Part shown: piece by piece, positions 51,167-64,000 of the stretch
Position numbering within the stretch: the stretch's first letter is position 1
Layout of the letters: every line of letters starts with the position of its first letter
NCBI GenBank assembly: GCA_963823665.1
Contig: CAWGMQ010000011.1
Coordinates: 96,001 to 160,000, forward strand
Source: an uncultured Planctomycetota bacterium
GTDB lineage: Bacteria > Planctomycetota > Planctomycetia > Isosphaerales > Isosphaeraceae
Direction: 5' to 3'
DNA: 64,000 bases
Made by a program: the position numbers and the translations under genes
The notes under the pieces: generated by a model
Database searches by the model: none
What the model was told of the DNA's origin: nothing
The model's input: the letters and a program-made list of their open reading frames with translations, nothing else

Positions 51167-52858
51167 GTGTCGACTCTCAAAACCATCGTTCGCCGGTGCT
51201 GCGCCATCTCGCCATCGCTCCCCCAGTTCGCCTCGGCCCGGCCTCGCCCCGTAACGAGGCGGCTGACGTTAGAACACCTCGAGAGCCGGGTCGTGCCCTC
51301 AACGATTCTCGTCACGAGCTTGCTAGACTCGGGTCGCGGCTCGCTCCGGGCCGCGATCATCAAGGCCAACCAGGACCCGAGCCATTCGGGAAGTCACACG
51401 CATTCGGATACAATCAAGTTCGCGCACTCGGTGAGGGGGACGATCCTTTTGGAGAGTGCACTGCCGGTCCTGTTGACCGATACGGTGATCTCCGGGCCAG
51501 GCCCCGCATTGCTGACGGTGGCCCGAGATTCCAGGTCTTTCCAATCGTTCCGCATCTTTACCGTAGGCAAAGGTGCCAGGACTGCGATTTCCGGACTGAC
51601 CATCGCGGGCGGAAGCACCGCCGCCGGAGGTGGGATCAATAACGCCGGATCGCTCTCACTGAATAATATGTGGATCATGGGCAACTTGACCTCCGGCGGC
51701 CTCGTGATTACCCAGGGAGCTACTCTTGGGGGTGGGATCGACAACACCGGCACGCTGTCAGTCACCGACTGCCGATTCACAGACAACACGGCAGAGGGCA
51801 ACGCCAACGTGGCCTATGGCGGTGCGATCGCGAACTCAGGCAGGCTCTCGATCATCGGGGCCACGTTCAGCGGCAACGTGGCCCAGAGTGGTTCAAATTA
51901 CGACGGTTTCGGCGGTGGAATCTACAATTCAGGCACGCTTTCGGTCATGGGGTCGACGTTCAGCGGCAACTCGGCCACGAGCGGTCAAGACGGTTATGGC
52001 GGTGCGATCAACAACCTCGGCACGCTCTCTGTCACCAACTCCACGTTCAACACCAACTCGGCGACGGGTGTTCTCGGCAGTTTCGGCGGCGCCATCGCCG
52101 ACTCGGGCGTCATTTCGCTCACCTACATCACGGCAGACGATAATTCGGCCACCACCGGCGGTGGCGTCGCGATCGTCTCCGGGGCTCAATCCATGGGCAA
52201 CTCGATTGACAGCATCTTTCAGAATTCGCAGGGCGGAAACGTCGCCGTCGTCGCGGGCAGCTTCACCTCCTTGGGCTACAACTTGTTCTCTGACAATCCC
52301 GGGATCAGCCACGTACCCACTGACCGGGTCAACATCAACCCGCTGTTGGGTCCGCTTGCGAACAACGGTGGTGATACCGAGACCCAGGCCCTGCTTTCCG
52401 GAAGCCCCGCGATCAGAGGGGGGATTTCAGTTGCCGGCATCACAACCGATCAGCGGGGAGACCCCCGGCCAGCGAGTGGTTCAACCGACCAGGGCGCTTT
52501 CCAGGTGCAACCCACTCTCTTCGTGAAGAGCATCCGGGAGTATAATTTCCCTGACCGTCCCGCCGTCTTTGTGCTGGCCTTCAACATGCTGCTCAATGCC
52601 TCCCGGGCTCAGTCCCTTGGCAACTACAGCATTGTTACGGAAGGCGGGAACGCACACCGGGTCGGAATCCGTTCCGCTCATTACAGTGCCTTTACCCAGT
52701 CCGTGACCGTGCGAGCAAGAATTCACCACCCCCCGAGTGAGATTTGGATAGTCACCGTGACCGGCACGCCACCGCACGGACTGACCAACACAAAGGGCGA
52801 CTATCTCGATGGCGCCGGGGACGGCCGACCAGGTACCAACTTCGTGGTGGGACTCTGA
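51167..52858 (+). CDS. Secreted beta-helix protein (GGAI/polymorphic-membrane-type repeats, choice-of-anchor Q-like)
   Basis: LEHLESRVVPS; GSLRAAI..AN; repeated FSGN.A..GGAI.N; LGPLANNGGDT.T.ALL.GSPAI; DQRG. Confidence 0.85.
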   Translation: MSTLKTIVRRCCAISPSLPQFASARPRPVTRRLTLEHLESRVVPSTILVTSLLDSGRGSLRAAIIKANQDPSHSGSHTHSDTIKFAHSVRGTILLESALPVLLTDTVISGPGPALLTVARDSRSFQSFRIFTVGKGARTAISGLTIAGGSTAAGGGINNAGSLSLNNMWIMGNLTSGGLVITQGATLGGGIDNTGTLSVTDCRFTDNTAEGNANVAYGGAIANSGRLSIIGATFSGNVAQSGSNYDGFGGGIYNSGTLSVMGSTFSGNSATSGQDGYGGAINNLGTLSVTNSTFNTNSATGVLGSFGGAIADSGVISLTYITADDNSATTGGGVAIVSGAQSMGNSIDSIFQNSQGGNVAVVAGSFTSLGYNLFSDNPGISHVPTDRVNINPLLGPLANNGGDTETQALLSGSPAIRGGISVAGITTDQRGDPRPASGSTDQGAFQVQPTLFVKSIREYNFPDRPAVFVLAFNMLLNASRAQSLGNYSIVTEGGNAHRVGIRSAHYSAFTQSVTVRARIHHPPSEIWIVTVTGTPPHGLTNTKGDYLDGAGDGRPGTNFVVGL

Positions 52859-53138
52859 AAGGACGCAATAGCGCCGTAACATCGTCTATCTTACTACTGT
52901 TCGGCATACCGCGCGGCAGTCAGCAAGTAGCGTTCCCGGAACTCAAACCATTTCCTCGATCTCGCTTGTTTCGTGTCGGCGGCCGCCGGCGTATAGTAGT
53001 GCCGGGTCGATTTGAGAGCCGAATCAGAAGTCGTTCCGCGATTTCGGGAGAATGCGATTGAGTCGAGGGTGCCGCAAGCGCGGCCCGGCAGGAGACTCGC
53101 CTTCCCGGAATCACCACGGGTCATTCGGGACTTCGCTC

Positions 53139-54665
53139 ATGCAAATCTGTTGTGTTTTTCGTGGCGTCCGACCGGGCTTTCCGATCGCGCTCGCGTTCAT
53201 CTGTTCAATCTTCTGCGTGCCGCCGGCGCGAGCTCAGAACGAGAAGCTCGGCCAATTTGAAGCGACCGGCGGCGTCGGGCGGATCGAGGTTCCCGGGAAG
53301 GTCGAATTCGACGCCGGGAAGGGAACGTACCGCGTGACCGGCAGCGGCGCGAACATGTGGTCCGCCGTCGATGCGTTTCAGTTTGTCTGGAAAAAAGTCT
53401 CGGGCGATCTGGAGCTTTCCGCCGCGATCGAATGGCTCGGCGAAGGGAAGAACGCTCACCGCAAGGCCGGGGCCTTGGTGCGGCAGGACCTACAAGCCGA
53501 TTCGCCCTACGTGGACGCTGTCGTGCACGGCGACGGGCTGATCTCGCTCCAGTTTCGCCGCGAGCGCGGCGGGCCAACGAGCGAGGTCAAAACCACGTTC
53601 AAGCCGCCCGCGGCGCTGAAGCTCGAGCGTAAGGGAAACGTTTTCAACCTTTCGGTGGCACCCAAGGGAGAGAGCTTTCACCCGGCGGGCTCGATCACCC
53701 TCGAGCTGCGCGGGGAGGTCTACGCCGGACTGGCCGTATGCTCTCACGAGGTGGACACTGCGGAAACCGCTATCTTCAGCGAGGTCCAGTTCAAGACCGA
53801 GCCGGCTGCCCCCGCGCAAACCCGCGTGCGCGAATCGACGCTGGAAACCGTGGCGATCGCGAGCGGCGTGCGCAGCATCATCTACCGGGCCAAGGAGCAT
53901 TTTGAAGCACCGAACTGGTCGCGCGACGGCAAGACGTTTTTCTATAACCGCGCGGGCAAGATCTACACGTTGCCTGTCTCGGGCGGCACGCCTGCGCTTC
54001 TGGATACCGGCGGTGCCGACCGCTGCAACAACGATCATGGGCTCTCGCCCGACGGCCGATGGCTGGCGATCAGCTACACCGACCCGGAGCTGCGGCAATC
54101 GGTCATCTCGGTTTTGTCGAGCCAGGGTGGAACACCCAAGCGGGTCACTCCCCTGGGACCCTCTTACTGGCATGGCTGGTCGCCCGACGGGCAAACTCTG
54201 GCGTATTGCGCCCAACGCAACGGCGAGTTCGACATTTACACCATCGCCGAACCCGCCGGCGAAGAGAAACGGCTCACAACAGCCAAAGGCCTGGATGACG
54301 GCCCCGACTATACGCCCGATGGCAAGCAGATCTATTTCAACTCGGAACGAACGGGTGTGATGAAAATATGGCGAATGAATTCCGACGGCACGAATCAGGA
54401 ACAAGTGACGTCAGACGAAGAATTCGCCGACTGGTTTCCCCATCCTTCACCGGACGGAAAGTGGCTGGTTCTTCTGTCGTACGAGAAGGATGTCACCGGT
54501 CATCCGGCCGACAAGGACGTTGTGCTGCGGATCATGCCGCTTTCGGGCGGAAAAGTGCGCGTGCTGGCGACCCTGTTCGGTGGCCAGGGGACGATCAATG
54601 TTCCCTCGTGGTCGCCGGACAGCAAGCACGTGGCGTTTGTGAGTTACCGGATGGTGGGGCGCTAA
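53139..54665 (+). CDS. TolB-like PD40 beta-propeller protein with N-terminal lectin-like domain
   Basis: [54 protein letters not shown]. Confidence 0.85.
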
Positions 54666-54669
54666 GGGT

Positions 54670-56106
54670 TCAGCATAGCAGGCGTGTGAGGACCTGGGCC
54701 GGATGCACGTCCGTCAGTCGCTCGTCGCGGCCCTGGTGCGCGAACGTGAGGCGGTGGAAATCGAGGCCGAGGAGGTGCAGGATCGTGGCGTGCAAGTCGG
54801 AGACGTGGCAGCGATCGGTGACGGCGTGATAGCCGAAGTCGTCGGTGGCGCCGTAGGTCTGCCCACCCTTGATTCCGCCGCCGGCGAGCCACACGGAGAA
54901 GCCGTAGGGGTGGTGATCGCGGCCGTCCTTGCCCTGGGCGCCGGGGGTTCGGCCGAACTCGCCGCCCCAGACGACAAGCGTTTGTTCGAGAAGTCCGCGC
55001 TGTTTCAAGTCTGTCAGCAGCCCGGCAACGGGCAGATCGGTTTGTTCGCAGCACGAGCGCGTGCCCGCTGCGTTGTTGGCGTGTGTGTCCCACGGCTGGC
55101 CGGCCATGAAAAGCTGGACGAACCGAACACCGCGCTCGACCAGCCGCCTGGCCATAAGGCAACGTGATCCATAAGACTTCGTGACCGGACTGTCCAGGCC
55201 GTAGAGCGCCTGCGTCGCCCGTGATTCCTGCGACAGGTCGAGCGCATCGGTGGCCGAGAGCTGCATGCGGGCTGCCAGCTCGAAGCTGGCGATCCGAGCG
55301 TCGAGGTCGAGCTCTTCGGGGTGGCGCGACTTGTGCTCGGCGTTGAGCTGCGAGAGCAACTCGAGCCGGCCGCGCTCGACATCGGGAGGGCGAGGCGTGC
55401 GCGGCTTGAGGTTCAAGACCGGCAATCCTTCGGCGCGGAACGGCGTGCCCTGGTAAACCGGCGGCAGCCAGCCGCTTGACCAGTTGCGGATGCCGTCGAC
55501 CGGAAGGCCCTTTGAATCGGGCAGAACGACGTAGGCGGGAAGATCCTGGTTCTCGGTGCCCAGGCCGTAGGCAACCCAGGCCGGCAAGCCTGGCCGGCCG
55601 GCGATCGTCAAGCCGGTGTGCATCGCCCAGATCGCTTGCTCGTGGTTGCGATGCATCGTGAACATCGAGCGGACGACGGCGATCTGGTCGGCATGTCGGG
55701 CGATGTGCGGGACCGTTTCCGAGAATTCGAGCCCCGAGCCGCCGTGCCTGGCAAATCGATACGGGCTCTTGAGCAGGTTGCCGGTGAGCTTCTCGTCGTC
55801 GGCAACTTCCTTCGGCGGCGGCTGGCCGTCGTGCTTGGCGAGCATCGGCTTGGGGTCGAGCAGATCGACATGGCTGGGGCCACCGTGCATGAAGAGCTGG
55901 ATGACGGATTTGGCCCGCGCGGGCAGGTGCGGAGGGCGCGGCAGAACGTCATACACCGCGCGAACCGACGAAGGCGACTCAGCCCGCAGCCGTTCCTCAC
56001 CCAGGAGTGCAGCCAGGACCATCCCGCCGAAGCCGCCACCCAGGCGCGACAATGCTTCGCGGCGGGTCGGGCAGTGCGTTGCTAACTGTTGCGCTTGCTC
56101 GGTCAT
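54670..56106 (-). CDS. DUF1501 domain protein (Tat-type signal)
   Basis: TRREAL, AKSVIQLFMHGGPSHVDLLDPKP, ARRLVERGVRFVQ, GEFGRTP, GRDHHP. Confidence 0.92.
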   Translation of the reverse strand: MTEQAQQLATHCPTRREALSRLGGGFGGMVLAALLGEERLRAESPSSVRAVYDVLPRPPHLPARAKSVIQLFMHGGPSHVDLLDPKPMLAKHDGQPPPKEVADDEKLTGNLLKSPYRFARHGGSGLEFSETVPHIARHADQIAVVRSMFTMHRNHEQAIWAMHTGLTIAGRPGLPAWVAYGLGTENQDLPAYVVLPDSKGLPVDGIRNWSSGWLPPVYQGTPFRAEGLPVLNLKPRTPRPPDVERGRLELLSQLNAEHKSRHPEELDLDARIASFELAARMQLSATDALDLSQESRATQALYGLDSPVTKSYGSRCLMARRLVERGVRFVQLFMAGQPWDTHANNAAGTRSCCEQTDLPVAGLLTDLKQRGLLEQTLVVWGGEFGRTPGAQGKDGRDHHPYGFSVWLAGGGIKGGQTYGATDDFGYHAVTDRCHVSDLHATILHLLGLDFHRLTFAHQGRDERLTDVHPAQVLTRLLC

Positions 56107-56135
56107 CGGAGCACCCCGGTTCGGTTCACTACCGA

Positions 56136-58736
56136 TCAATCCACGTAAGCAAATTCGTTCGAGCTCAGGAGCATGTGGCAGAGATCCTCGAGTGCGCGCT
56201 GCCGGGCGCGCTCGAGATCCAGCGTCGCAGCACCAGGAGATCGAGCGTGGCGGCTCGACTGGACGGCGAGAAAGTTTTCGAGCGCGGCGCGCTCAGCCTC
56301 GGAAGATTGGCGGCCCAGTGCGAGCTGGACGGCTCGGCCGGACGGGTCGGAGCGCGTCTCGCGCTCGAGCCGCGTTGCGAACGCCCGTGCGATCGATGTC
56401 AACGTATCGCAGTTGAGCAGGTTGAGCGCCTGAGAGGCAATGGTCGAAACACCCCGGCGGGTGCAGTTCGTTTCCATGACCGGCTGGTCGAACGACTGGA
56501 GGAGCGTGAGCGGTTGCGAACGTCGGACTTTCATGTAGATCGACCGGCGATGGCCGGACGGGTGATCGGGCGCGACGACTTCACCGTCGGGCCGGACCAC
56601 GAAGGGCACGGGGGGGCCGAATAACCGCGTGTTCAGAAGGCCGGAGACCGCGAGCATCGCATCGCGGAGGGGCTCGCCCTCGAGCCGTCGCATCCGCTGA
56701 CGCCAGAGCAAGCGCACGGCGGGATCGACCTGCTTCGCCCTGGCGTGGGCCGGCGAATTTGGGTCGACTCGGCTCGATTGACGATAGGCTGTCGAGGTCA
56801 AGATGAGCCGGTGCATCGCCTTGATGCTCCAGCCGCGCGCGACGAACTCGCACGCCAGCCAGTCGAGCAGTTCGGGATGAGAGGGGGCTGCACCGGCGAT
56901 CCCGAAGTTGTCGGGTGTGGCGACCAACCCCTCACCGAAGTGCAGCAACCAGATCCGGTTGACCATCACGCGCGAAGTCAGGGGATGGCCGGGCTGCGTG
57001 AGCCATTTTGCGAAGGCGAGCCGGCGGCCGCTGGTCTTTGCGTTCTTCGCGGGGCTCGACCAGGCAAACGGCTGCGGTGCGGCGATCGCTTGAAGCGTGC
57101 CTGGGCCGACTTCGCGGCCGGGCGTGGTGTAGTCGCCGCGCTTGAGGATCGGTGTCGTCGGCTCACCTGGCAGGTCGTAGAAGGCGCGGATCTCGGGAAA
57201 TGTGCGCCGCCCGGCTTGGGCTTCGGCGATTTTGGAAGTGATCGTAGCGGCCTGAGTCTTGTAGTCGGGATAGAGTGTGGAGAGTGCGGCGGAAAGCCTG
57301 GGCTCGGCGGGTTTGAGGCGATCGGCGAACTTGGCGTTCAGGTACTTCTGGACCTCCGTCTGCTTGGCGGGGTCGGTCGCGAGGGCTTTGCGAGTGTCTT
57401 CGCGAATCGGCTCGGGAAGCTGCGCCAGACGGTCGGTGAGCAGTCGTCCGGAGAACGTCTCCTTGAGGGATTGAGCCTTCTTCGCCAGCTCGGCGACCGA
57501 TGAGTCGATCCGGGCGTTGTGCGCTTTGGCTTCGGCTTCTTGTGCCGCCGTGGCTTCGAACAGCTTGCGCTCGACCTGCGGCACCCACTGCGCGGGGCGA
57601 TAGCCGCTCATGAAGATCGCCTGAACCCGGTAGTACTCTTCCTGAGGAATCGGGTCGTACTTATGCGAGTGGCATTTGGCGCACTGAAGCGTGAGCCCGA
57701 GCGTGGACGACGCGACGATTTTCAGCGTGTCTTCGAGCGTCTGGTAGTAGTATCCAGGGGCGTTCTTGATTTGCTTGAAGTCGGGGCGGCTGGTGTCCGA
57801 AGCGCAGCGAAGGTAGCCGGTGGCAACGAGCGCCTCGACTTGATCGGGATTGAGCTGCTTCTCGGCGCGGAAGACGGACGGATAGTCAATGACTTCGTCG
57901 CCCGCGATCTGAAGTTCGAGGAAGCGGTCGTAGGGCAGATCGGCATTGAACGCGCGGATCACGAAATCACGATATCGCCACGCGCACGATCGCTCGTAGT
58001 CGGCGTCGAGGATTCCTTCGGAATCGGCGTAACCGGCCAGGTCGAGCCAGTGTCGTCCCCATCGCTCGCCGTAATGCGGCGAAGCCAGGAGCGCATCAAT
58101 GAGCCGCTCCCACGCGTCCGGGCGATTGTCGCTCAGGAAGGCTTCGGTTTGCTCGGGTGACGGAGGTAGCCCCCAGAGGTCGAAATACGCTCGGCGCACG
58201 AGCGCGGGCCGGTCCGCCTCGGGCGAGAAAGATAAGCCGTTCGTTTCCAGCCGCGCGAGTAGAAAGCGGTCGACAGCGTTCCGGGCTTGCCCGGGATTGT
58301 GCACGCTCGGGACGGGCGGGCGCGCGGGGGGCTGGAAGGCCCAGAAGCTCGATGCGGCAGAATTCGTCGCGCCGCTCTGGCCGGGAGCACCGGCGTCGAT
58401 CCACCGCCTGACGATGGCGATCTCATCCCCGGTCAGCTTCGGATTCTTGCCGGGGGGCATGTTCCCGGACACCACTTGCTCGATGACAAGGCTTTCGCCG
58501 CTCTTGCCGGGAACGATCGCTTTGCCCGTATCGCCGCCCTGAGTCATCGACGCGACCGTGCGAAGATCGAGCCCACCCTTACGCGCTTCGGCACCGTGGC
58601 ACTTGATGCAATGGTCTCGCAAGATCGGCGCGACGTCTTTACCGAACTGCGGCGCCTGTGCCCGAGCGATCGTGAGGCTCGGCGACGCGAGCCAAACGCA
58701 CGCGACGGCGCAGATGCAATGGCGCAGCCCGGCCAT
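56136..58736 (-). CDS. Planctomycete cytochrome c plus DUF1549/DUF1553 (PSD1) protein
   Basis: CIKCH and CAKCHSHKYDP heme motifs; YGERWGRHWLDLAGYADS; VNRIW; PSHPELLDWLA; start uncertain. Confidence 0.92.
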   Translation of the reverse strand: MAGLRHCICAVACVWLASPSLTIARAQAPQFGKDVAPILRDHCIKCHGAEARKGGLDLRTVASMTQGGDTGKAIVPGKSGESLVIEQVVSGNMPPGKNPKLTGDEIAIVRRWIDAGAPGQSGATNSAASSFWAFQPPARPPVPSVHNPGQARNAVDRFLLARLETNGLSFSPEADRPALVRRAYFDLWGLPPSPEQTEAFLSDNRPDAWERLIDALLASPHYGERWGRHWLDLAGYADSEGILDADYERSCAWRYRDFVIRAFNADLPYDRFLELQIAGDEVIDYPSVFRAEKQLNPDQVEALVATGYLRCASDTSRPDFKQIKNAPGYYYQTLEDTLKIVASSTLGLTLQCAKCHSHKYDPIPQEEYYRVQAIFMSGYRPAQWVPQVERKLFEATAAQEAEAKAHNARIDSSVAELAKKAQSLKETFSGRLLTDRLAQLPEPIREDTRKALATDPAKQTEVQKYLNAKFADRLKPAEPRLSAALSTLYPDYKTQAATITSKIAEAQAGRRTFPEIRAFYDLPGEPTTPILKRGDYTTPGREVGPGTLQAIAAPQPFAWSSPAKNAKTSGRRLAFAKWLTQPGHPLTSRVMVNRIWLLHFGEGLVATPDNFGIAGAAPSHPELLDWLACEFVARGWSIKAMHRLILTSTAYRQSSRVDPNSPAHARAKQVDPAVRLLWRQRMRRLEGEPLRDAMLAVSGLLNTRLFGPPVPFVVRPDGEVVAPDHPSGHRRSIYMKVRRSQPLTLLQSFDQPVMETNCTRRGVSTIASQALNLLNCDTLTSIARAFATRLERETRSDPSGRAVQLALGRQSSEAERAALENFLAVQSSRHARSPGAATLDLERARQRALEDLCHMLLSSNEFAYVD

Positions 58737-58840
58737 CCGCTGTTTGTTGCACTTTCGTTCAACAATTCTCATGCGATCGATGTTATCACGGGCGGGATTC
58801 GCGGGGTAGCGGGATTGGCGGGGACGGCAGCGCAAGAGGT

Positions 58841-60745
58841 CTATCTTGCGGCCGCCGCAGGGACGTTAACCTGGCCGTCAAACGGCTCGGACACGGGAAG
58901 CACGAAGGTGTAATCGTGGACAAGCAGCCCCGTGGTGCCGACCATGAAGTCGCGGTTCTCGGCGACCGTCAAGTTAAAGACCATCTGGGTTGCGTCGCGC
59001 TCGATCGAGTCGACGGTGGCGAGACCGCCCACTGTGCGGAGGCGATCGCCCGCCTTCAGGTCGCGCGCCATGGTCCAGCCCTTGCCGGCCTTCCAGAAGC
59101 GGTGGATGCCGGTGGCGACGATGGTTTCGCTGCCGATCGCGAGGCGGAAGGTTTCCGCGGGGCCGGTCTTGTGGGTGACCAGCACGGGCTGATAAGACAG
59201 CGCGCCGGTCGTTGTGTGTTGTGACAGGACGCGGTCACCGACGGCGATCGATTCGATCTTGCGCGGGCCGATCAGGGTCTGCACCAAGGTGCCCGCGGCG
59301 AAGCAGGAAGGGCTGAAGATGATGGCAGGGAGATTCACGGCAAGATCCGGGAGCTCCACATCACTGACGTAGGTCGGCTTGGTTTCGGCATACCGATCGT
59401 CGTAGACGTAGCCAAGCTGGTCCGTCCACCACTTTTGCCAGAGCTGCGGATCCGCCGGCATTTTCTGGGCCGTGAGCGTTTCCAGAAGCGCCAGCAGCCG
59501 GCCGTTGATTTCGTTGATCTGCGCGTTCGCTTCTTCGATCGCTTGGATATCGTCCTCGATTGTCCGTTCGACGAGGAGGTTGGCTCGCCCGGTCGCTGCG
59601 AGGCCATCGGCCACCATGAAGCCCCATTGAGAGGCCAGCAACCGGTTGGTGAGAACAACCTGTTCGACGACAGCGGGCATCGCCATCATATTGGCGTGTA
59701 CTTTGCCAGAGCCGGCAGTCATGTTCAGGTCGGGCGAGCGATAGAGCCTCTGGAGGTCGAATTGTTCGCCGTCGACCAACAAGGCGGACGTCGAGCCCGG
59801 CCCCGTACCTCTCTTGAGCTCGTACTTAAACGGCTTGTGGAGCCGGTTGATCATCCAGCCGATTGTGTCGCGCGGATCACGGAACGTAACCGCCCGGGCC
59901 GCGCGGCTGCGAACTTCGCTCGACGGCTTGTCGATGGCGAGCACGAGCAGGCAGAACGATGCCCCGGGGCCTTCAATCTGCGAGAAAAGCTCAACCGCGA
60001 CGAGCTGCGCTTTCTCGCTGCCATTGGCGAAGACCTTCCAGATCATCGGAACTGCGCGGGGATCCGTCACCTGATAGAGTTCTTTCTCCGCCTTCAAGCG
60101 CCGCGTCTCGATGGTGCTTTCCACCGCTTCGCGCAGTTTTTCGAGGCGCGGCTTCCACTCTTTATCGGAGCGTTTCTGGCGATCGGCTTCGAGCTTCTGA
60201 GCTGCGAGCTGATCGGGCTTCATCCAGTGGTCGTGAACCCTCTTGAACCCAAGGCGGATCCATGCGACATCTCGCGACGGATCGAGGCGGGTCACCGCGA
60301 AGTAGTGGGCGCGAGATTCGTCCTTCAGGCCGTTGTCGATGCACCAGGCGGCGAGGCGCAACTGGGCATCGACGTTTTTCTGGGGTGTGCGGACGCGGCG
60401 ATCGAGGTATTCGCGGAAGATGGTTTGGGATTTCGAGTCGCTCTCGATCTCTCGCTCGACCTGGTCGGGCTTCACCCATCGTCCCTGGACGGCCACGAGG
60501 CCGAGCAAGCCGCGAGCGAGCAGATTGGCCGGGGCGAGGGAAACCGCGAGGTTCAAATGTTTGACACGCTCGGCCGTCATGCCGTGAGCTTCGCACCAGA
60601 GGGCGAGCTGAACGTGAGCGGCGGGGTTCTTGGCGGCCTTGGCGGCGGCGGCCTCGTAGGCGGCGCGATCCGTTGCGCTGGCGGTCTCGGTGGGTTTGCC
60701 ACCATCCCCCAGCATGACACAACAGAGCAGGATTACTTGAATCAT
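58841..60745 (-). CDS. Secreted TPR/HEAT protein with C-terminal Hint domain, paralog 1
   Basis: Signal-like MIQVILLCCVMLG; Hint at 59305-58913 CFAAGTLV...TGIH...VFNLTV...LLVHD. Confidence 0.88.
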   Translation of the reverse strand: MIQVILLCCVMLGDGGKPTETASATDRAAYEAAAAKAAKNPAAHVQLALWCEAHGMTAERVKHLNLAVSLAPANLLARGLLGLVAVQGRWVKPDQVEREIESDSKSQTIFREYLDRRVRTPQKNVDAQLRLAAWCIDNGLKDESRAHYFAVTRLDPSRDVAWIRLGFKRVHDHWMKPDQLAAQKLEADRQKRSDKEWKPRLEKLREAVESTIETRRLKAEKELYQVTDPRAVPMIWKVFANGSEKAQLVAVELFSQIEGPGASFCLLVLAIDKPSSEVRSRAARAVTFRDPRDTIGWMINRLHKPFKYELKRGTGPGSTSALLVDGEQFDLQRLYRSPDLNMTAGSGKVHANMMAMPAVVEQVVLTNRLLASQWGFMVADGLAATGRANLLVERTIEDDIQAIEEANAQINEINGRLLALLETLTAQKMPADPQLWQKWWTDQLGYVYDDRYAETKPTYVSDVELPDLAVNLPAIIFSPSCFAAGTLVQTLIGPRKIESIAVGDRVLSQHTTTGALSYQPVLVTHKTGPAETFRLAIGSETIVATGIHRFWKAGKGWTMARDLKAGDRLRTVGGLATVDSIERDATQMVFNLTVAENRDFMVGTTGLLVHDYTFVLPVSEPFDGQVNVPAAAAR

Positions 60746-60800
60746 GGATTCAGCTCCCGGGGAAGTTCCTGTTTGTCAACTGGGTGCGCCGGCGATCGTG

Positions 60801-62717
60801 TCAGCGGGGCACCGTCTGCGCCGCTGTGGCTGGGTGGTCGAACGGCTGGGAAACCGGCAGGACGAAACTGACGTCGTGAACCAGGCAACCGGCGTTTCCT
60901 ATCAGGAAGTCGCGATTCTCGGCCACGTTCAGGTTATACACACTCTGGGTGGCGTCGGGCTCGATCGATTGAACGGTTGTGGTGCCGGCGATTGCACGAA
61001 GACGATCACCTGGCTTCAAGTCGCGCGCCATGATCCATCCCTTGCCGGCCTTCCAGAATCGATGGATTCCCGTGGTGACGATAATCTCGCCGTCAATCGC
61101 GAGCCGGAACGTTTCCGCGCCGTTTCGTACGGTGGTATTGAGAACGGGCTGGAAAGAGAGGGCTCCGGTCGATGTGTCCTGAGAGAGCACGCGGTCGCCG
61201 ATGCTGAGCGACTCAATTTTCTTCAGACCGCCCGAGGTGTGCACCAAGGTGCCCGCTGCGAAGCAGGACATCTTGTAGTAGGACACCATCGGCAGAATAA
61301 CGGACACATCAGGGGCTTCCACCGTGTCGGTGTACAGGGGCTTGTTCTGATCCGACGGGTCGTTGTATGAGAGGCCGAGCTGCTCACCCCACCACTGTCG
61401 CCATGCCCCGGGAAGTTCTCCAAGCTTTTCGCCAGTCAGAGATTCGAGAAGAGCGAACGCGCGGCCGTTGGTCTCGTTGATTTGCGCGTTGGCGTCATCG
61501 ATCGTCCGGACGTCTTCTTCAAGCGATTGCCGGATGGTGTCATTTCGCGCCTGGCTTTGCGCAATCGCATCGGCGATCAGATTGGGCCATAGCGCTCTCA
61601 GCATGCGGTCCATGGGGATCGCCGCGCGCATCTGGCGCGCCGATTCCGCGGCCATGTTGTGCGATATCATGGCCGACATCAGCGGCACGAAGTTGAAATT
61701 CACGTCGGAGTAACGATAAAACCGCCTGCGGTCGAATTTCTCGCCGTCGACCAGCAGAGTGGCCGTCGAGCCACCACCGGCTCCTTCAATGACCTCGTAC
61801 TTGTAGGGTTTGCGGAGCAGGCTCGTGAGCCAGCCGATGACTTCGCGAGGATCGCGATACTTGAGCGCTCGGCCGGCGTGCGAACGCACTTCGCTCGAGG
61901 GACTATTGATCGCCAGTGCGAGGATGCAATACGACGCCCCTGGCCCGTCGATCTGCGAGAAAAGCTCGATCGCGACAAGCTGCATTTTCTCATTTCCGCC
62001 GCCGAAGACTTTCCAGATCGATGGGACAGCGCGGGGGTCGGTGATCTGGTAGAGTTCCTTCTCGGCTTTCAATCGCCGCGATTCCGTCGGGCTTGCAAGC
62101 GCGTCTCGAAGCTTTTCGAGCCGCGGCTTCCACAGTGAGTCGGCGCGTTTCTGGTGTTCGGCTTCGAGCTTCTGGGTGGCCAGGTCCTCAGGCTTCGACC
62201 AGCGGTCGTGTTGCTTTTTGTAGCCCAATTTCACCCAGGCGATATCTCGTGATGGGTCGAGACGAGTGACCAGGTGGTAGTGGGCAATGGCCTCGTCCTT
62301 GAGTCCGTTCTCAAGGCACCAGGCGGCGAGTCGCAACTGGGCGTCGACGTTTTTTTGAGGTGTGTGCACGCGGCGATCGAGGTACTCGCGGTAGAGGGCG
62401 TCGAACTTCGGGTCGGCGTGGATTTCCTTCTCGACCTGGTCGGGTTTGGCCCATTTGCCCTGGAAGGCCATCAGGCCCAAGAGGGCACGGGCGAGCGCAT
62501 TTGAAGGGTCGAGAGACGACGCGATGGTCAGGTGCTTGATTCGCTCGGAGGAGAGGCCGTGGGTTTCGCACCAGAGTGCCAACTTGACGTGTGCGGCCGC
62601 GCTCTTGCCGGCTTTGGCGGCGGCGGCTTCGTAGGCGGCTCGATCGCTGGGGCTCGGGTCGGCGGGTTTGTTGCCGTCAGTGAGGATGGCACAGCAGAGC
62701 AGGATGACGTGGACCAT
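60801..62717 (-). CDS. Secreted TPR/HEAT protein with C-terminal Hint domain, paralog 2
   Basis: MVHVILLCCAILT; Hint at 61265-60873 CFAAGTLV...TGIH...VYNLNV...CLVHD. Confidence 0.88.
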   Translation of the reverse strand: MVHVILLCCAILTDGNKPADPSPSDRAAYEAAAAKAGKSAAAHVKLALWCETHGLSSERIKHLTIASSLDPSNALARALLGLMAFQGKWAKPDQVEKEIHADPKFDALYREYLDRRVHTPQKNVDAQLRLAAWCLENGLKDEAIAHYHLVTRLDPSRDIAWVKLGYKKQHDRWSKPEDLATQKLEAEHQKRADSLWKPRLEKLRDALASPTESRRLKAEKELYQITDPRAVPSIWKVFGGGNEKMQLVAIELFSQIDGPGASYCILALAINSPSSEVRSHAGRALKYRDPREVIGWLTSLLRKPYKYEVIEGAGGGSTATLLVDGEKFDRRRFYRYSDVNFNFVPLMSAMISHNMAAESARQMRAAIPMDRMLRALWPNLIADAIAQSQARNDTIRQSLEEDVRTIDDANAQINETNGRAFALLESLTGEKLGELPGAWRQWWGEQLGLSYNDPSDQNKPLYTDTVEAPDVSVILPMVSYYKMSCFAAGTLVHTSGGLKKIESLSIGDRVLSQDTSTGALSFQPVLNTTVRNGAETFRLAIDGEIIVTTGIHRFWKAGKGWIMARDLKPGDRLRAIAGTTTVQSIEPDATQSVYNLNVAENRDFLIGNAGCLVHDVSFVLPVSQPFDHPATAAQTVPR

Positions 62718-62774
62718 GAGTTTCTCACTTCGGGTTCTGAGGGTGACCCTGACGCGAACACGCCCGCGATTAGA

Positions 62775-64000
62775 TCACTTGGGCGCCGCCTGCGCCGGGC
62801 TGGTCAGGCGGTCGAACGGATCGGACACCGGTAAAACGAAGCTGAAGTCGTGGACCAGCAGGCCGGCCGTGCCGACCAGGTAGTCGCGGTTTTCCGCGAC
62901 CGTCAAGTTGTAGACCATTTGTGTCGGGCCGGGCTCGATCGATTCGATCGTGGTGGCGCCGCCCAACATGCGGAGGCGGTCACCGGCTTTCAGGTCGCGG
63001 GCCATGGTCCAGCCGTTGCCGGCTTTCCAGAAGCGGTGGATACCGGTGGCGACGATGGTTTCGCTGTCCTGCGTGATTCGCAATGTAGCGGATGGACCAT
63101 TCACGTGAGTGGCCAGAACCGGTTGGAACGACAGTGCGCCGGTGGATGTCTGCTGGGACAGGATGCGGTCGCCCACGGTCACCGATTCAATCTTTTGAGG
63201 GCCGGTGAGCGTTTGGACCAACGTTCCGGCAGCGAAGCAGGCACCATGCGGCCGCGCGGGTGCACCCGGCACGAAGCCCGTCACCACGGAGACCTGGATG
63301 TTGGGCGTGTCAACCGAATCGACAAAGGTCGGTTTCGCACTGGAGTAGCGATCGTCATAAACATAACCGAGCTGTTCCGCCCACCACCGCCGCCATGCCT
63401 GGGGGTCGGCGCCCAATTTCTGCCCGGTCAGCGATTCAAGGACAGGCAACAATCGCTCGTTGAATTGATCGATTTGAGTGTTGGCGGCCTGGATCATCCG
63501 GATGTCGTCCTCGAGCGTCTTCTGCACAGCGGCTGTCGCTTGAAGCGATTGTTGCATTGCAGCGGCGATCGACATCTCCCGTTCCCATGCGAGATTCAAA
63601 TTGAACTGAGCACTGGCTGTCAGTGCCTGCGGGGCCCTGGCCGAGGACGTCGGCACGACCATGCCGCCGGCCATCGGGGCAGCCGTCGGCATGGAAGCCA
63701 CGGGCGGCGACATGCGCGTCTCGACGGTGGGAAACCAATAGAAACGCTGAAGGTCGAACTGCTCGCCGTCGACGACGAGTGAGCCGGTCGAGCCAGAGCC
63801 AGTTCCCGGGTTGATCTTGTACTTGTACGGCTTGTGAACCATGTTGATCAGCCGGCCGATCACGTCGCGCGGGTCGCGCCCGAGGAGTGCCTGCGCGGCA
63901 CGTTCGCGCACGTCGGCTGAAGGTGAATCGAGAGCAAGCAGTGCAATACCGCTCGAGGCGGTCGGCCCCTCGATCTGGCTGAACAGCTCGACCGCGACGA
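62775..64000 (-). CDS. HEAT protein with C-terminal Hint domain, paralog 3 (5' end beyond the window)
   Basis: Frame is open to the edge (VAVELFSQIEGP); Hint at 63239-62847 CFAAGTLV...TGIH...LLVHD. Confidence 0.88.
   Translation of the reverse strand, partial: VAVELFSQIEGPTASSGIALLALDSPSADVRERAAQALLGRDPRDVIGRLINMVHKPYKYKINPGTGSGSTGSLVVDGEQFDLQRFYWFPTVETRMSPPVASMPTAAPMAGGMVVPTSSARAPQALTASAQFNLNLAWEREMSIAAAMQQSLQATAAVQKTLEDDIRMIQAANTQIDQFNERLLPVLESLTGQKLGADPQAWRRWWAEQLGYVYDDRYSSAKPTFVDSVDTPNIQVSVVTGFVPGAPARPHGACFAAGTLVQTLTGPQKIESVTVGDRILSQQTSTGALSFQPVLATHVNGPSATLRITQDSETIVATGIHRFWKAGNGWTMARDLKAGDRLRMLGGATTIESIEPGPTQMVYNLTVAENRDYLVGTAGLLVHDFSFVLPVSDPFDRLTSPAQAAPK

Follow-up and report, generated by a model that had tools for sequence, protein, structure and literature searches.

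Type A bacterial intein-like (BIL) domains, filed in Pfam as PT-HINT (PF07591) and represented by the Clostridium thermocellum BIL (2LWY), are the closest described relatives of the domain examined here, a Hedgehog/intein (Hint) domain that closes three genes at the end of a 64-kb stretch of an Isosphaeraceae genome (G000:C11:96001-160000, called the window below). The three genes lie head to tail on the minus strand and belong to a family with a fixed layout, in which a hydrophobic leader is followed by a TPR/HEAT body with hypervariable segments, a C-terminal PT-HINT with the type A BIL fold, and a short tail. As in type A BILs, the domain has Cys1, a block-B TxxH motif, Asn at F:4, a variable +1 residue, no endonuclease, and an exported host protein. 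Unlike type A BILs, the family ends in His-Asp and never in His-Asn, its conserved 24-residue tail stands at the end of the protein and not before a toxin, there is no immunity gene or toxin tip, and the host architecture is the same throughout the class. Databases file the family as 'polymorphic toxin-type HINT', yet it has no toxin, a fixed Asn-to-Asp change, and a dedicated tail, and we suggest below that a type A BIL of an exported protein may have been converted into a one-sided, removable C-terminal module.

The Hog domain of Hedgehog (1AT0, 6TYY) and Hint domains followed by an adduct recognition region (ARR) share with the family a signal peptide, an N-terminal payload, a C-terminal Hint of the same fold with the same N-side residues, and a conserved region after the Hint. 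According to PMC12054796, PMC9163320, and PMC7906309, Hedgehog needs D46, C143 (the counterpart of the intein Cys+1), as well as its sterol-recognition region (SRR); the first of these treats D46 and C143 as Hedgehog-specific catalytic residues, and the last describes the SRR as a two-helix region of roughly 97 residues. The planctomycete family differs in that it has no D46-type Asp and no C143 or +1 Cys, its tail is non-helical and a quarter of the SRR length, and it was not found in the sterol-making lineage.

Ligation of a bacterial Hint to an outside molecule has already been proposed for other BIL types. Type B BILs, type C BILs, which have a PPS-1 domain upstream together with type C motifs, and Vint domains cleave mainly on the N side, with ligation to outside molecules proposed, and in both respects they are comparable to what we consider here. 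Unlike type B and C BILs and Vint, the family has a recognizable, alignable block G and derives from the type A fold, and the sequence families are different; the window proteins match Hint_2 (PF13403) at 24.7-26.7 bits, below the cut-off of 28.4, and over the N-terminal 32 positions only. Among inteins that end in Asp or Gln, we take the Carboxydothermus ribonucleotide reductase intein to be an example. Such inteins, as described in PMC4031507, also have a non-Asn residue at G:7, but they are single inteins in housekeeping hosts with a +1 nucleophile, whereas here the Asp is fixed family-wide and no +1 nucleophile is present. The fold of Tetrahymena BUBL BIL2 (6Y75, 6TMM) is likewise close, and BIL2 shows that a Lys amine can resolve a BIL thioester; BIL2 differs in being flanked by ubiquitin-like domains, in keeping its terminal Asn, and in its cytoplasmic eukaryotic setting. 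In the papers searched, we found no description of an Asp-ended planctomycete Hint family, and supplements (e.g., those of PMC3482391 and PMC2362128) may list such proteins; PMC3482391 treats HINT only as a pre-toxin peptidase, and PMC2362128 names no planctomycete genera.

Family distribution, conserved residues, and tail

A search with the Hint region returned 455 proteins at E<=1e-5, of which 120 were taken, and a profile search supplied its best 150 matches. The profile matches 105 of the 121 genomes of the window's family, with up to 24 matches per genome, a few of which may be ordinary Hints. Among the matches listed, the named relatives are Isosphaeraceae, including cultured Singulisphaera, Paludisphaera, and Aquisphaera, and full-length relatives occur in at least 10 other families of Planctomycetia (30 genomes chosen for strong scores). 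Altogether, 410 distinct Hints share an open reading frame (ORF) with the family N-part; eight fail to align through block G and were dropped (seven family genes truncated or frameshifted at block G, and one unrelated), leaving 402 Hints, a set dominated by Isosphaeraceae-type sequences in which kin are not independent. Control Hints without the family N-part consist of 41 that end in His-Asn, 22 that are incomplete, and 24 His-Asp or Tyr-Asp fragments with the family tail and short upstream frames.

The array whose last members are the three window genes has nine copies in tandem (C11:154868-172518), of which one lies in two frames, and it extends beyond the window. Their ORFs match PT-HINT in Pfam at 55.6, 65.8, and 59.7 bits against a cut-off of 27.7, their N-parts give TPR_14-like and HEAT_2-like signals, and the Cys1 (CFAAG) codons are at 59303-59305, 61263-61265, and 63237-63239. 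The features in window coordinates, with lengths in amino acids (aa), are as follows.

58841..60745, minus strand: family gene, last of the array, 634 aa, with leader, TPR-like repeats, HEAT region, variable segments, Hint, and tail
58913..59305, minus strand: PT-HINT (Pfam), Cys1 to terminal His-Asp, aa 481-611
58844..58912, minus strand: tail of 23 residues behind the Asp, PFD at 58877-58885
60801..62717, minus strand: family gene, 638 aa, the copy used for the structure model
62679..62717, minus strand: short hydrophobic leader, probably an export signal (mean hydropathy 2.86 over the first 12 residues)
61518..61697, minus strand: hypervariable segment, aa 341-400 (mean pair identity 13-24% among the 8 intact array copies, 60-80% elsewhere)
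61434..61589, minus strand: 52-residue helix, aa 377-428, a possible coiled-coil stalk (near-invariant Asn410 and Asn417, heptad register)
60873..61265, minus strand: PT-HINT (Pfam and fold match), Cys485 to His614-Asp615
60804..60872, minus strand: 23-residue tail, with PFD at 60837-60845, confidently placed in the model and without helix
62775..>63998, minus strand: family gene that runs past the edge of the window, 654 aa on the whole contig
62847..63239, minus strand: PT-HINT (Pfam), Cys1 to terminal His-Asp
62778..62846, minus strand: 23-residue tail, with PFD at 62811-62819

An earlier note on this DNA had read in the three window Hints a CFAAG Cys1, a block-B TGIH, and a His-Asp end followed by Tyr, Val, or Phe with a conserved tail behind it, and all of this is borne out. 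Among the 402 Hints, the N-side residues are Cys1 in 396, Thr or Ser at B:7 in 397, His at B:10 in 394, and Asn at F:4 in 395, and this catalytic set is under strong selection, which supports the note on this side of the domain. On the C side, His is found at G:6 in 389, and G:7 is Asp in 400, Gly in 2, and Asn in none. The note had also claimed loss of the block-F His; this holds for the window, where all three Hints have Arg, but not for the family as a whole, in which F:13 is Arg in 175 and His in 82. The +1 residue is Asn in 177, Phe in 103, Tyr in 52, Val in 32, and Ser in 11, and never Cys or Thr, which, together with the lack of the tail in Hint-less relatives, sets the family apart from class 1 inteins, whose conserved housekeeping hosts have intein-less alleles equal to the spliced product. 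In the Isosphaeraceae-rich set, Ser or Ala precedes Cys1 (position -1) in 319 of 344, and Arg occupies B:11 in 345 of 350. The source genome has 20 PT-HINT matches, 19 of them above the cut-off; the His-Asp end is present in all 16 of its family Hints that were aligned and Cys1 in 14.

In a FastTree phylogeny (121 of 317 rows), Tyr, Arg, Phe, or Gly has taken the place of the penultimate His in separate branches that keep the Asp, and F:13 and +1 vary freely, with 52 and 43 changes. The C-side helpers are therefore relaxed, and because Asn also never returns, evolution points away from C-side chemistry. Cys1 and the block-B His are kept in 98% of the 402 and tend to be lost together. Cys1 is missing from six, several of which also lack the block-B His; loss of Cys1 with Asp and tail kept occurred in at least three lineages, and for three genomes a Cys1-less Hint is the only copy read. 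Pseudo-Hints with Ser or Gly in place of Cys1, mostly without the block-B His and with Asp and tail kept, were seen in the source genome (L057:8964-10028 and L058:11096-12640) and at L225, L226, L248, P0246, and P0256.

The tail is kept in the homologs; an unconserved tail, which the note had named as refuting its idea, is thus not what is seen. In Isosphaeraceae, it has Pro at +6 and then PFD (Phe in 343 and Asp in all of 344), and outside this family Pro at +6 is followed by hydrophobic-PG-hydrophobic. Over 404 tails, the median length is 24 residues, 16% of the first 14 residues are Pro, and the median hydropathy is -0.20, which is mildly polar. The AlphaFold2 model of the 638-aa copy (mean predicted local distance difference test score, pLDDT, 88.8; predicted template modeling score 0.67) has an N-part with two TPR-like repeats, a HEAT-like region, a beta-hairpin and the 52-residue helix flanking the variable segment, and a further strand, and a low-confidence linker (475-484) precedes the Hint. 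The modeled tail is non-helical, with pLDDT 92 for 611-620 and 85 for 621-630. The best match of the Hint in the PDB is the type A BIL 2LWY both by sequence (E 5.7e-24) and by fold (Z 20.7, root-mean-square deviation 1.3, 132 aligned), and Tetrahymena BIL2 (Z 18.7) and Hedgehog 1AT0 (Z 17.6) also match by fold; the fold search with the N-part gave only generic helical-repeat matches, with Z up to 9.2. Trp71, Trp77, Met79, and Arg/Lys81 are conserved surface-type residues that are specific to the family. Mean-field covariation over 448 Hints (effective number 292) recovers plausible Hint contacts and ranks several tail-Hint pairs highly, namely 67-135 (rank 1-2, tail against block B), 65-137/138, 90-143, and +1 with 45, 47, and 49. 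When the rows are limited to the Isosphaeraceae type and when the Ser-B:7 subgroup is taken out, the 67-135 and +1 pairs hold up and 65-137/138 and 90-143 weaken. The single full-length model and the covariation suggest a tail folded back against the face of the Hint that bears the active site. The earlier note had given the tail a part in recognizing an outside nucleophile; such a position would suit that part, which belongs to one of the alternatives weighed below.

Hint-less relatives and proposed N-side release

Four tandem Hint-less paralogs lie on contig C8 of the source genome (G000:C8:1754947-1760208; L059, L316), with relatives at L317-L345, and close relatives at E<1e-30 are found in 33 of the 121 genomes of the window's family. 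No Hint was found in the 30 loci of this subfamily that were read. The 31 complete C-termini have a predicted beta-strand that stops at the position of the Cys1 junction, the penultimate residue is Asp in every one (DT 10, DS 8, DH 6, DG 4, other 3), and the tail motif occurs in none. These proteins form a clade of their own, with a Shimodaira-Hasegawa-like approximate likelihood ratio support of 100 (13 of 26 rows used). By their sequences, they resemble a gene-encoded cleavage product and not a spliced product, and they show that the family body can persist with a C-terminus that is free and exactly positioned; the subfamily favors plain release of such a terminus. A shorter Hint-less TPR/HEAT protein of 400-500 aa that is related to the N-part (G000:C11:675137-675751; L062:8646-10064) appears from weak matches to be near universal in the class.

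A short hydrophobic leader starts all members of the family, and in six homologs (P0180, P0185, P0217, P0225, P0234, and P0268) an extracytoplasmic function (ECF) sigma factor and one hydrophobic segment are fused before the whole protein, Hint included. Because of the leader and these fusions, the Hint most likely acts outside the cytoplasm, and the ECF-fused homologs are conceivable as self-cleaving extracytoplasmic sensors. A lipoprotein signal was considered and rejected, since the Cys-Cys of the leader is absent from distant members.

The reading that we prefer, for and against which our judgment is about evenly balanced, is that the Hint cleaves itself from the N-part by hydrolysis and frees a defined C-terminal strand, the Asp and the tail being a permanent part of the removable module. 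Given the conserved residues and known Hint chemistry, Cys1, aided by the block-B Thr or Ser and His, would turn the preceding bond into a thioester. The change from Asn to Asp would shut down or greatly slow cleavage on the C side, so that the 24-residue tail remains attached; the tail would fold over block B and the loop at 45-49, and there it could set the timing or aid folding, and the Asp may also serve as a base for water. Hydrolysis of the thioester would then release the mature N-part, its C-terminus now a free, exactly defined beta-strand with a small last residue; the Hint-less subfamily would encode such an end directly. In its mature form, the protein is probably oligomeric, belongs to the envelope or surface, and has a tip that varies. 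If this is right, the family is a natural one-sided self-cleaving module that bears on the shift of Hint domains from splicing to processing and is a candidate for a cleavable tag.

Several points weigh against self-cleavage by hydrolysis. Shared descent confounds the covariation. The Hint-less proteins stand in a clade apart, and loss of the Hint may be only one option for their origin (support 78; approximately unbiased test p 0.81 for the alternative). They end in Asp-x, unlike the segments before Cys1, whose ends are rich in His and Ser, and they could be unanchored partners of anchored subunits. The Asp and the tail are kept in Cys1-less copies and are thus not tied to N-side chemistry, and to judge from the sequences they could be structural or act on the C side. 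A near-invariant Asp and a PFD that is invariant in the Isosphaeraceae-rich set go beyond the needs of an off-switch and could mark the site of an acceptor. Finally, degenerate Hints are enriched in carriers without a squalene-hopene-type cyclase match (9 of 17 against 2 of 27, described below), which is a lead for a hopanoid acceptor.

Possible ligation or Asp-side chemistry, and lipid distribution

A less probable alternative, and in our view a doubtful one, is that an acceptor recruited and activated by the tail and the Asp resolves the thioester, so that the N-part is ligated to it. The acceptor would be an amine (a Lys of a partner or target, peptidoglycan diaminopimelate, an amino-lipid, or an amino-hopanoid) or a hydroxyl (a hopanepolyol or a glycan), with the chance of a sterol negligible; apart from the sterol, this is what the earlier note had proposed. 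The layout of C-terminal Hint and conserved tail, the same as in Hedgehog and ARR proteins (PMC2362128), the covariation of the tail with active-site loops, and the near invariance of the Asp all agree with ligation, and a Hint-made Lys isopeptide has a precedent in Tetrahymena BIL2 (PMC8616854). However, both Hedgehog-specific catalytic residues are missing, with Asp at position 45 or 46 in 0 of 402 and +1 Cys in 0 of 402. The register of the HMMER ranges against 1AT0 and 6TYY holds to within one residue, and both positions were therefore checked. The most frequent residue at 45 and at 46 is His (204 and 191 of 402; one of the three window proteins has it at neither), and because the D46H form of Hedgehog stays active, a His base is possible. 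Nor is there a helical hydrophobic SRR-like region after the Hint, the tail being short, Pro-rich, mildly polar, and helix-free. The likeness to Hedgehog, as far as residues can tell, thus extends to the layout and not to the catalytic set, and the Hedgehog-like chemistry of the earlier note, taken strictly, finds no support. Ligation is further opposed by the lack of a class-wide conserved acceptor Lys in the N-part, by the absence of conserved partner genes beyond local synteny and generic kinases, and by the persistence of Hint-less relatives without any means of adduction.

The distribution of lipid cyclases bears on the choice of acceptor. Of 300 class genomes, 9 have a match above the cut-off for oxidosqualene cyclase, and these belong to a single family that is presumably Gemmataceae (judging from PMC12673574). 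In the 66 genomes of that family searched with the full-length family profile, nothing matched better than 3.9e-30, and the Hint profile matched 41 of 121 genomes, where the 30 best loci lack the family N-part and end in His-Asn wherever the end is readable. A sterol acceptor, suggested in the earlier note, is therefore rejected as a general explanation, the family not being found in the lineage that holds all the sterol-cyclase genomes. Squalene-hopene-type cyclase, scored with PF13249, matches in 241 of the 300 class genomes and in all 72 sampled from the window's family, a point in favor of a hopanoid acceptor; that of the source genome lies in frameshifted pieces. Outside Isosphaeraceae, a Hint was read in 44 carriers, mostly the best copy only, and with a cyclase threshold of E<=1e-28, 17 have no cyclase match (8 look intact, 3 lack Cys1, and 6 have a tail without PG) and 27 have one (2 degenerate, with a His-Gly end). 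Because 8 of the 9 degenerate cases in the former group sit in one family, they amount to only about 3-4 events, and because 8 of the 17 look intact, a hopanoid acceptor, which the note had also raised, cannot be obligatory, although the enrichment of degenerate copies among these carriers speaks for it.

A wider form of ligation, which we consider somewhat less probable again, would hold for the whole class. The Asp-ended Hint and its tail would couple the C-terminus of the exported protein covalently to an acceptor in the envelope (an amino-hopanoid or polyhydroxy-hopanoid, peptidoglycan, or a neighboring subunit), the Hint-less paralogs would be unanchored subunits, and the tandem arrays would diversify the exposed tip. 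Such a system, an equally tentative comparison, would be the equal of a built-in sortase or, with other residues doing the catalysis, of Hedgehog processing in a bacterial form. If ligation does occur, proteins would be anchored covalently in the unusual envelope of planctomycetes by a new route. With carriers in culture (Singulisphaera, Paludisphaera, Aquisphaera), the question can be put to a direct test.

It is unlikely that the chemistry takes place at the Asp, which would cyclize to an anhydride and cut off the tail, after which either the new amine of the docked tail attacks the Cys1 thioester, splicing the N-part to the tail, or the anhydride acylates an outside amine. According to PMC4031507, type A BILs do not need a +1 nucleophile to splice, which they can do by aminolysis; inteins with a terminal Asp or Gln are able to cleave; some inteins can dispense with His F:13 and G:6; and the B:11 Arg assists cyclization in Ssp DnaE. 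Thus, the earlier note's description of the window Hints as splicing-incompetent does not follow as a rule, although the evolutionary pattern sides with it. The penultimate His still present in 389 of 402, the F:13 His present in 82, the B:11 Arg, and the persistence of the Asp in Cys1-less copies would fit chemistry at the Asp. What makes it unlikely is that none of the 402 Hints has reverted to the more efficient Asn, that the penultimate His has repeatedly been lost, that the Hint-less relatives match a cleaved and not a spliced product, and that the tail-Hint covariation suggests that the tail is a lasting part of the domain. In addition, type A BILs do not ligate according to PMC7765530, and PMC5874633 takes a middle line on their splicing.

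It is very improbable that the Hint and tail are mainly a binding or structural unit that undergoes cleavage in the cell rarely if at all, since the Cys1-less copies that keep Asp and tail and the conserved surface-type residues (Trp71 and the others named above) favor such a unit, but the retention and joint loss of Cys1 and the block-B His, the strong Ser/Ala preference at -1, and the stop of the Hint-less subfamily at the junction all oppose it.

Neighboring genes and other Hint arrangements

The eight intact array copies are 55-84% alike per 20-residue block through body and Hint and only 13-24% alike over the hypervariable residues 341-400 and 461-480. Neither a toxin domain after the Hint nor an adjacent immunity gene was found; a median of 24 residues follows the Asp, and the array genes follow each other directly. 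No NCBIfam family scores above its cut-off, and the protein atlas holds only unnamed or PT-HINT-labeled planctomycete clusters. A scan for promoters and terminators gave no signal above chance, three DNA contig sets span parts of the stretch with no indels listed, and no RNA sequencing run is listed as containing it.

Directly downstream of the array, at window positions 54670-58835 on the minus strand, are an 899-aa DUF1549/DUF1553/PSCyt1 protein and a DUF1501 protein, a typical planctomycete pair. On the plus strand, a TolB-like PD40-repeat protein lies at 53052-54665 and a putative surface protein of 563 aa, rich in repeats and with no Pfam match at E<=1e-5, at 51167-52858. Family genes and a squalene-hopene cyclase-like gene of the source genome are split over frames (G000:C11:166753-168619; C6:1203307-1205222; C7:368923-370820; C7:882242-884109). 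These splits are likely to be long-read errors, because the same is seen in many related assemblies, and they could also be pseudogenes.

Other proteins carry several His-Asn Hints in tandem, three to five per protein, joined by very short linkers (e.g., HNKG and then the next Cys), as at L079, L088, P0122, P0134, and P0138. Serpins with an ordinary His-Asn PT-HINT inserted in the region of the reactive-center loop were found at L295:823-2976 (minus strand), L296:355-2628 (plus), L297:799-3048 (minus), and L301:880-3387 (minus), in genomes G561, G480, G588, and G540. In these, the PF00079 match of about 305 bits ends at profile position 330-331 of 370 and is followed by the PT-HINT with Phe, Ile, or Tyr at +1, the serpin C-terminal motif, and dockerin-like repeats, and on this arrangement of domains the PT-HINT serpin is possibly self-cleaving or self-splicing.

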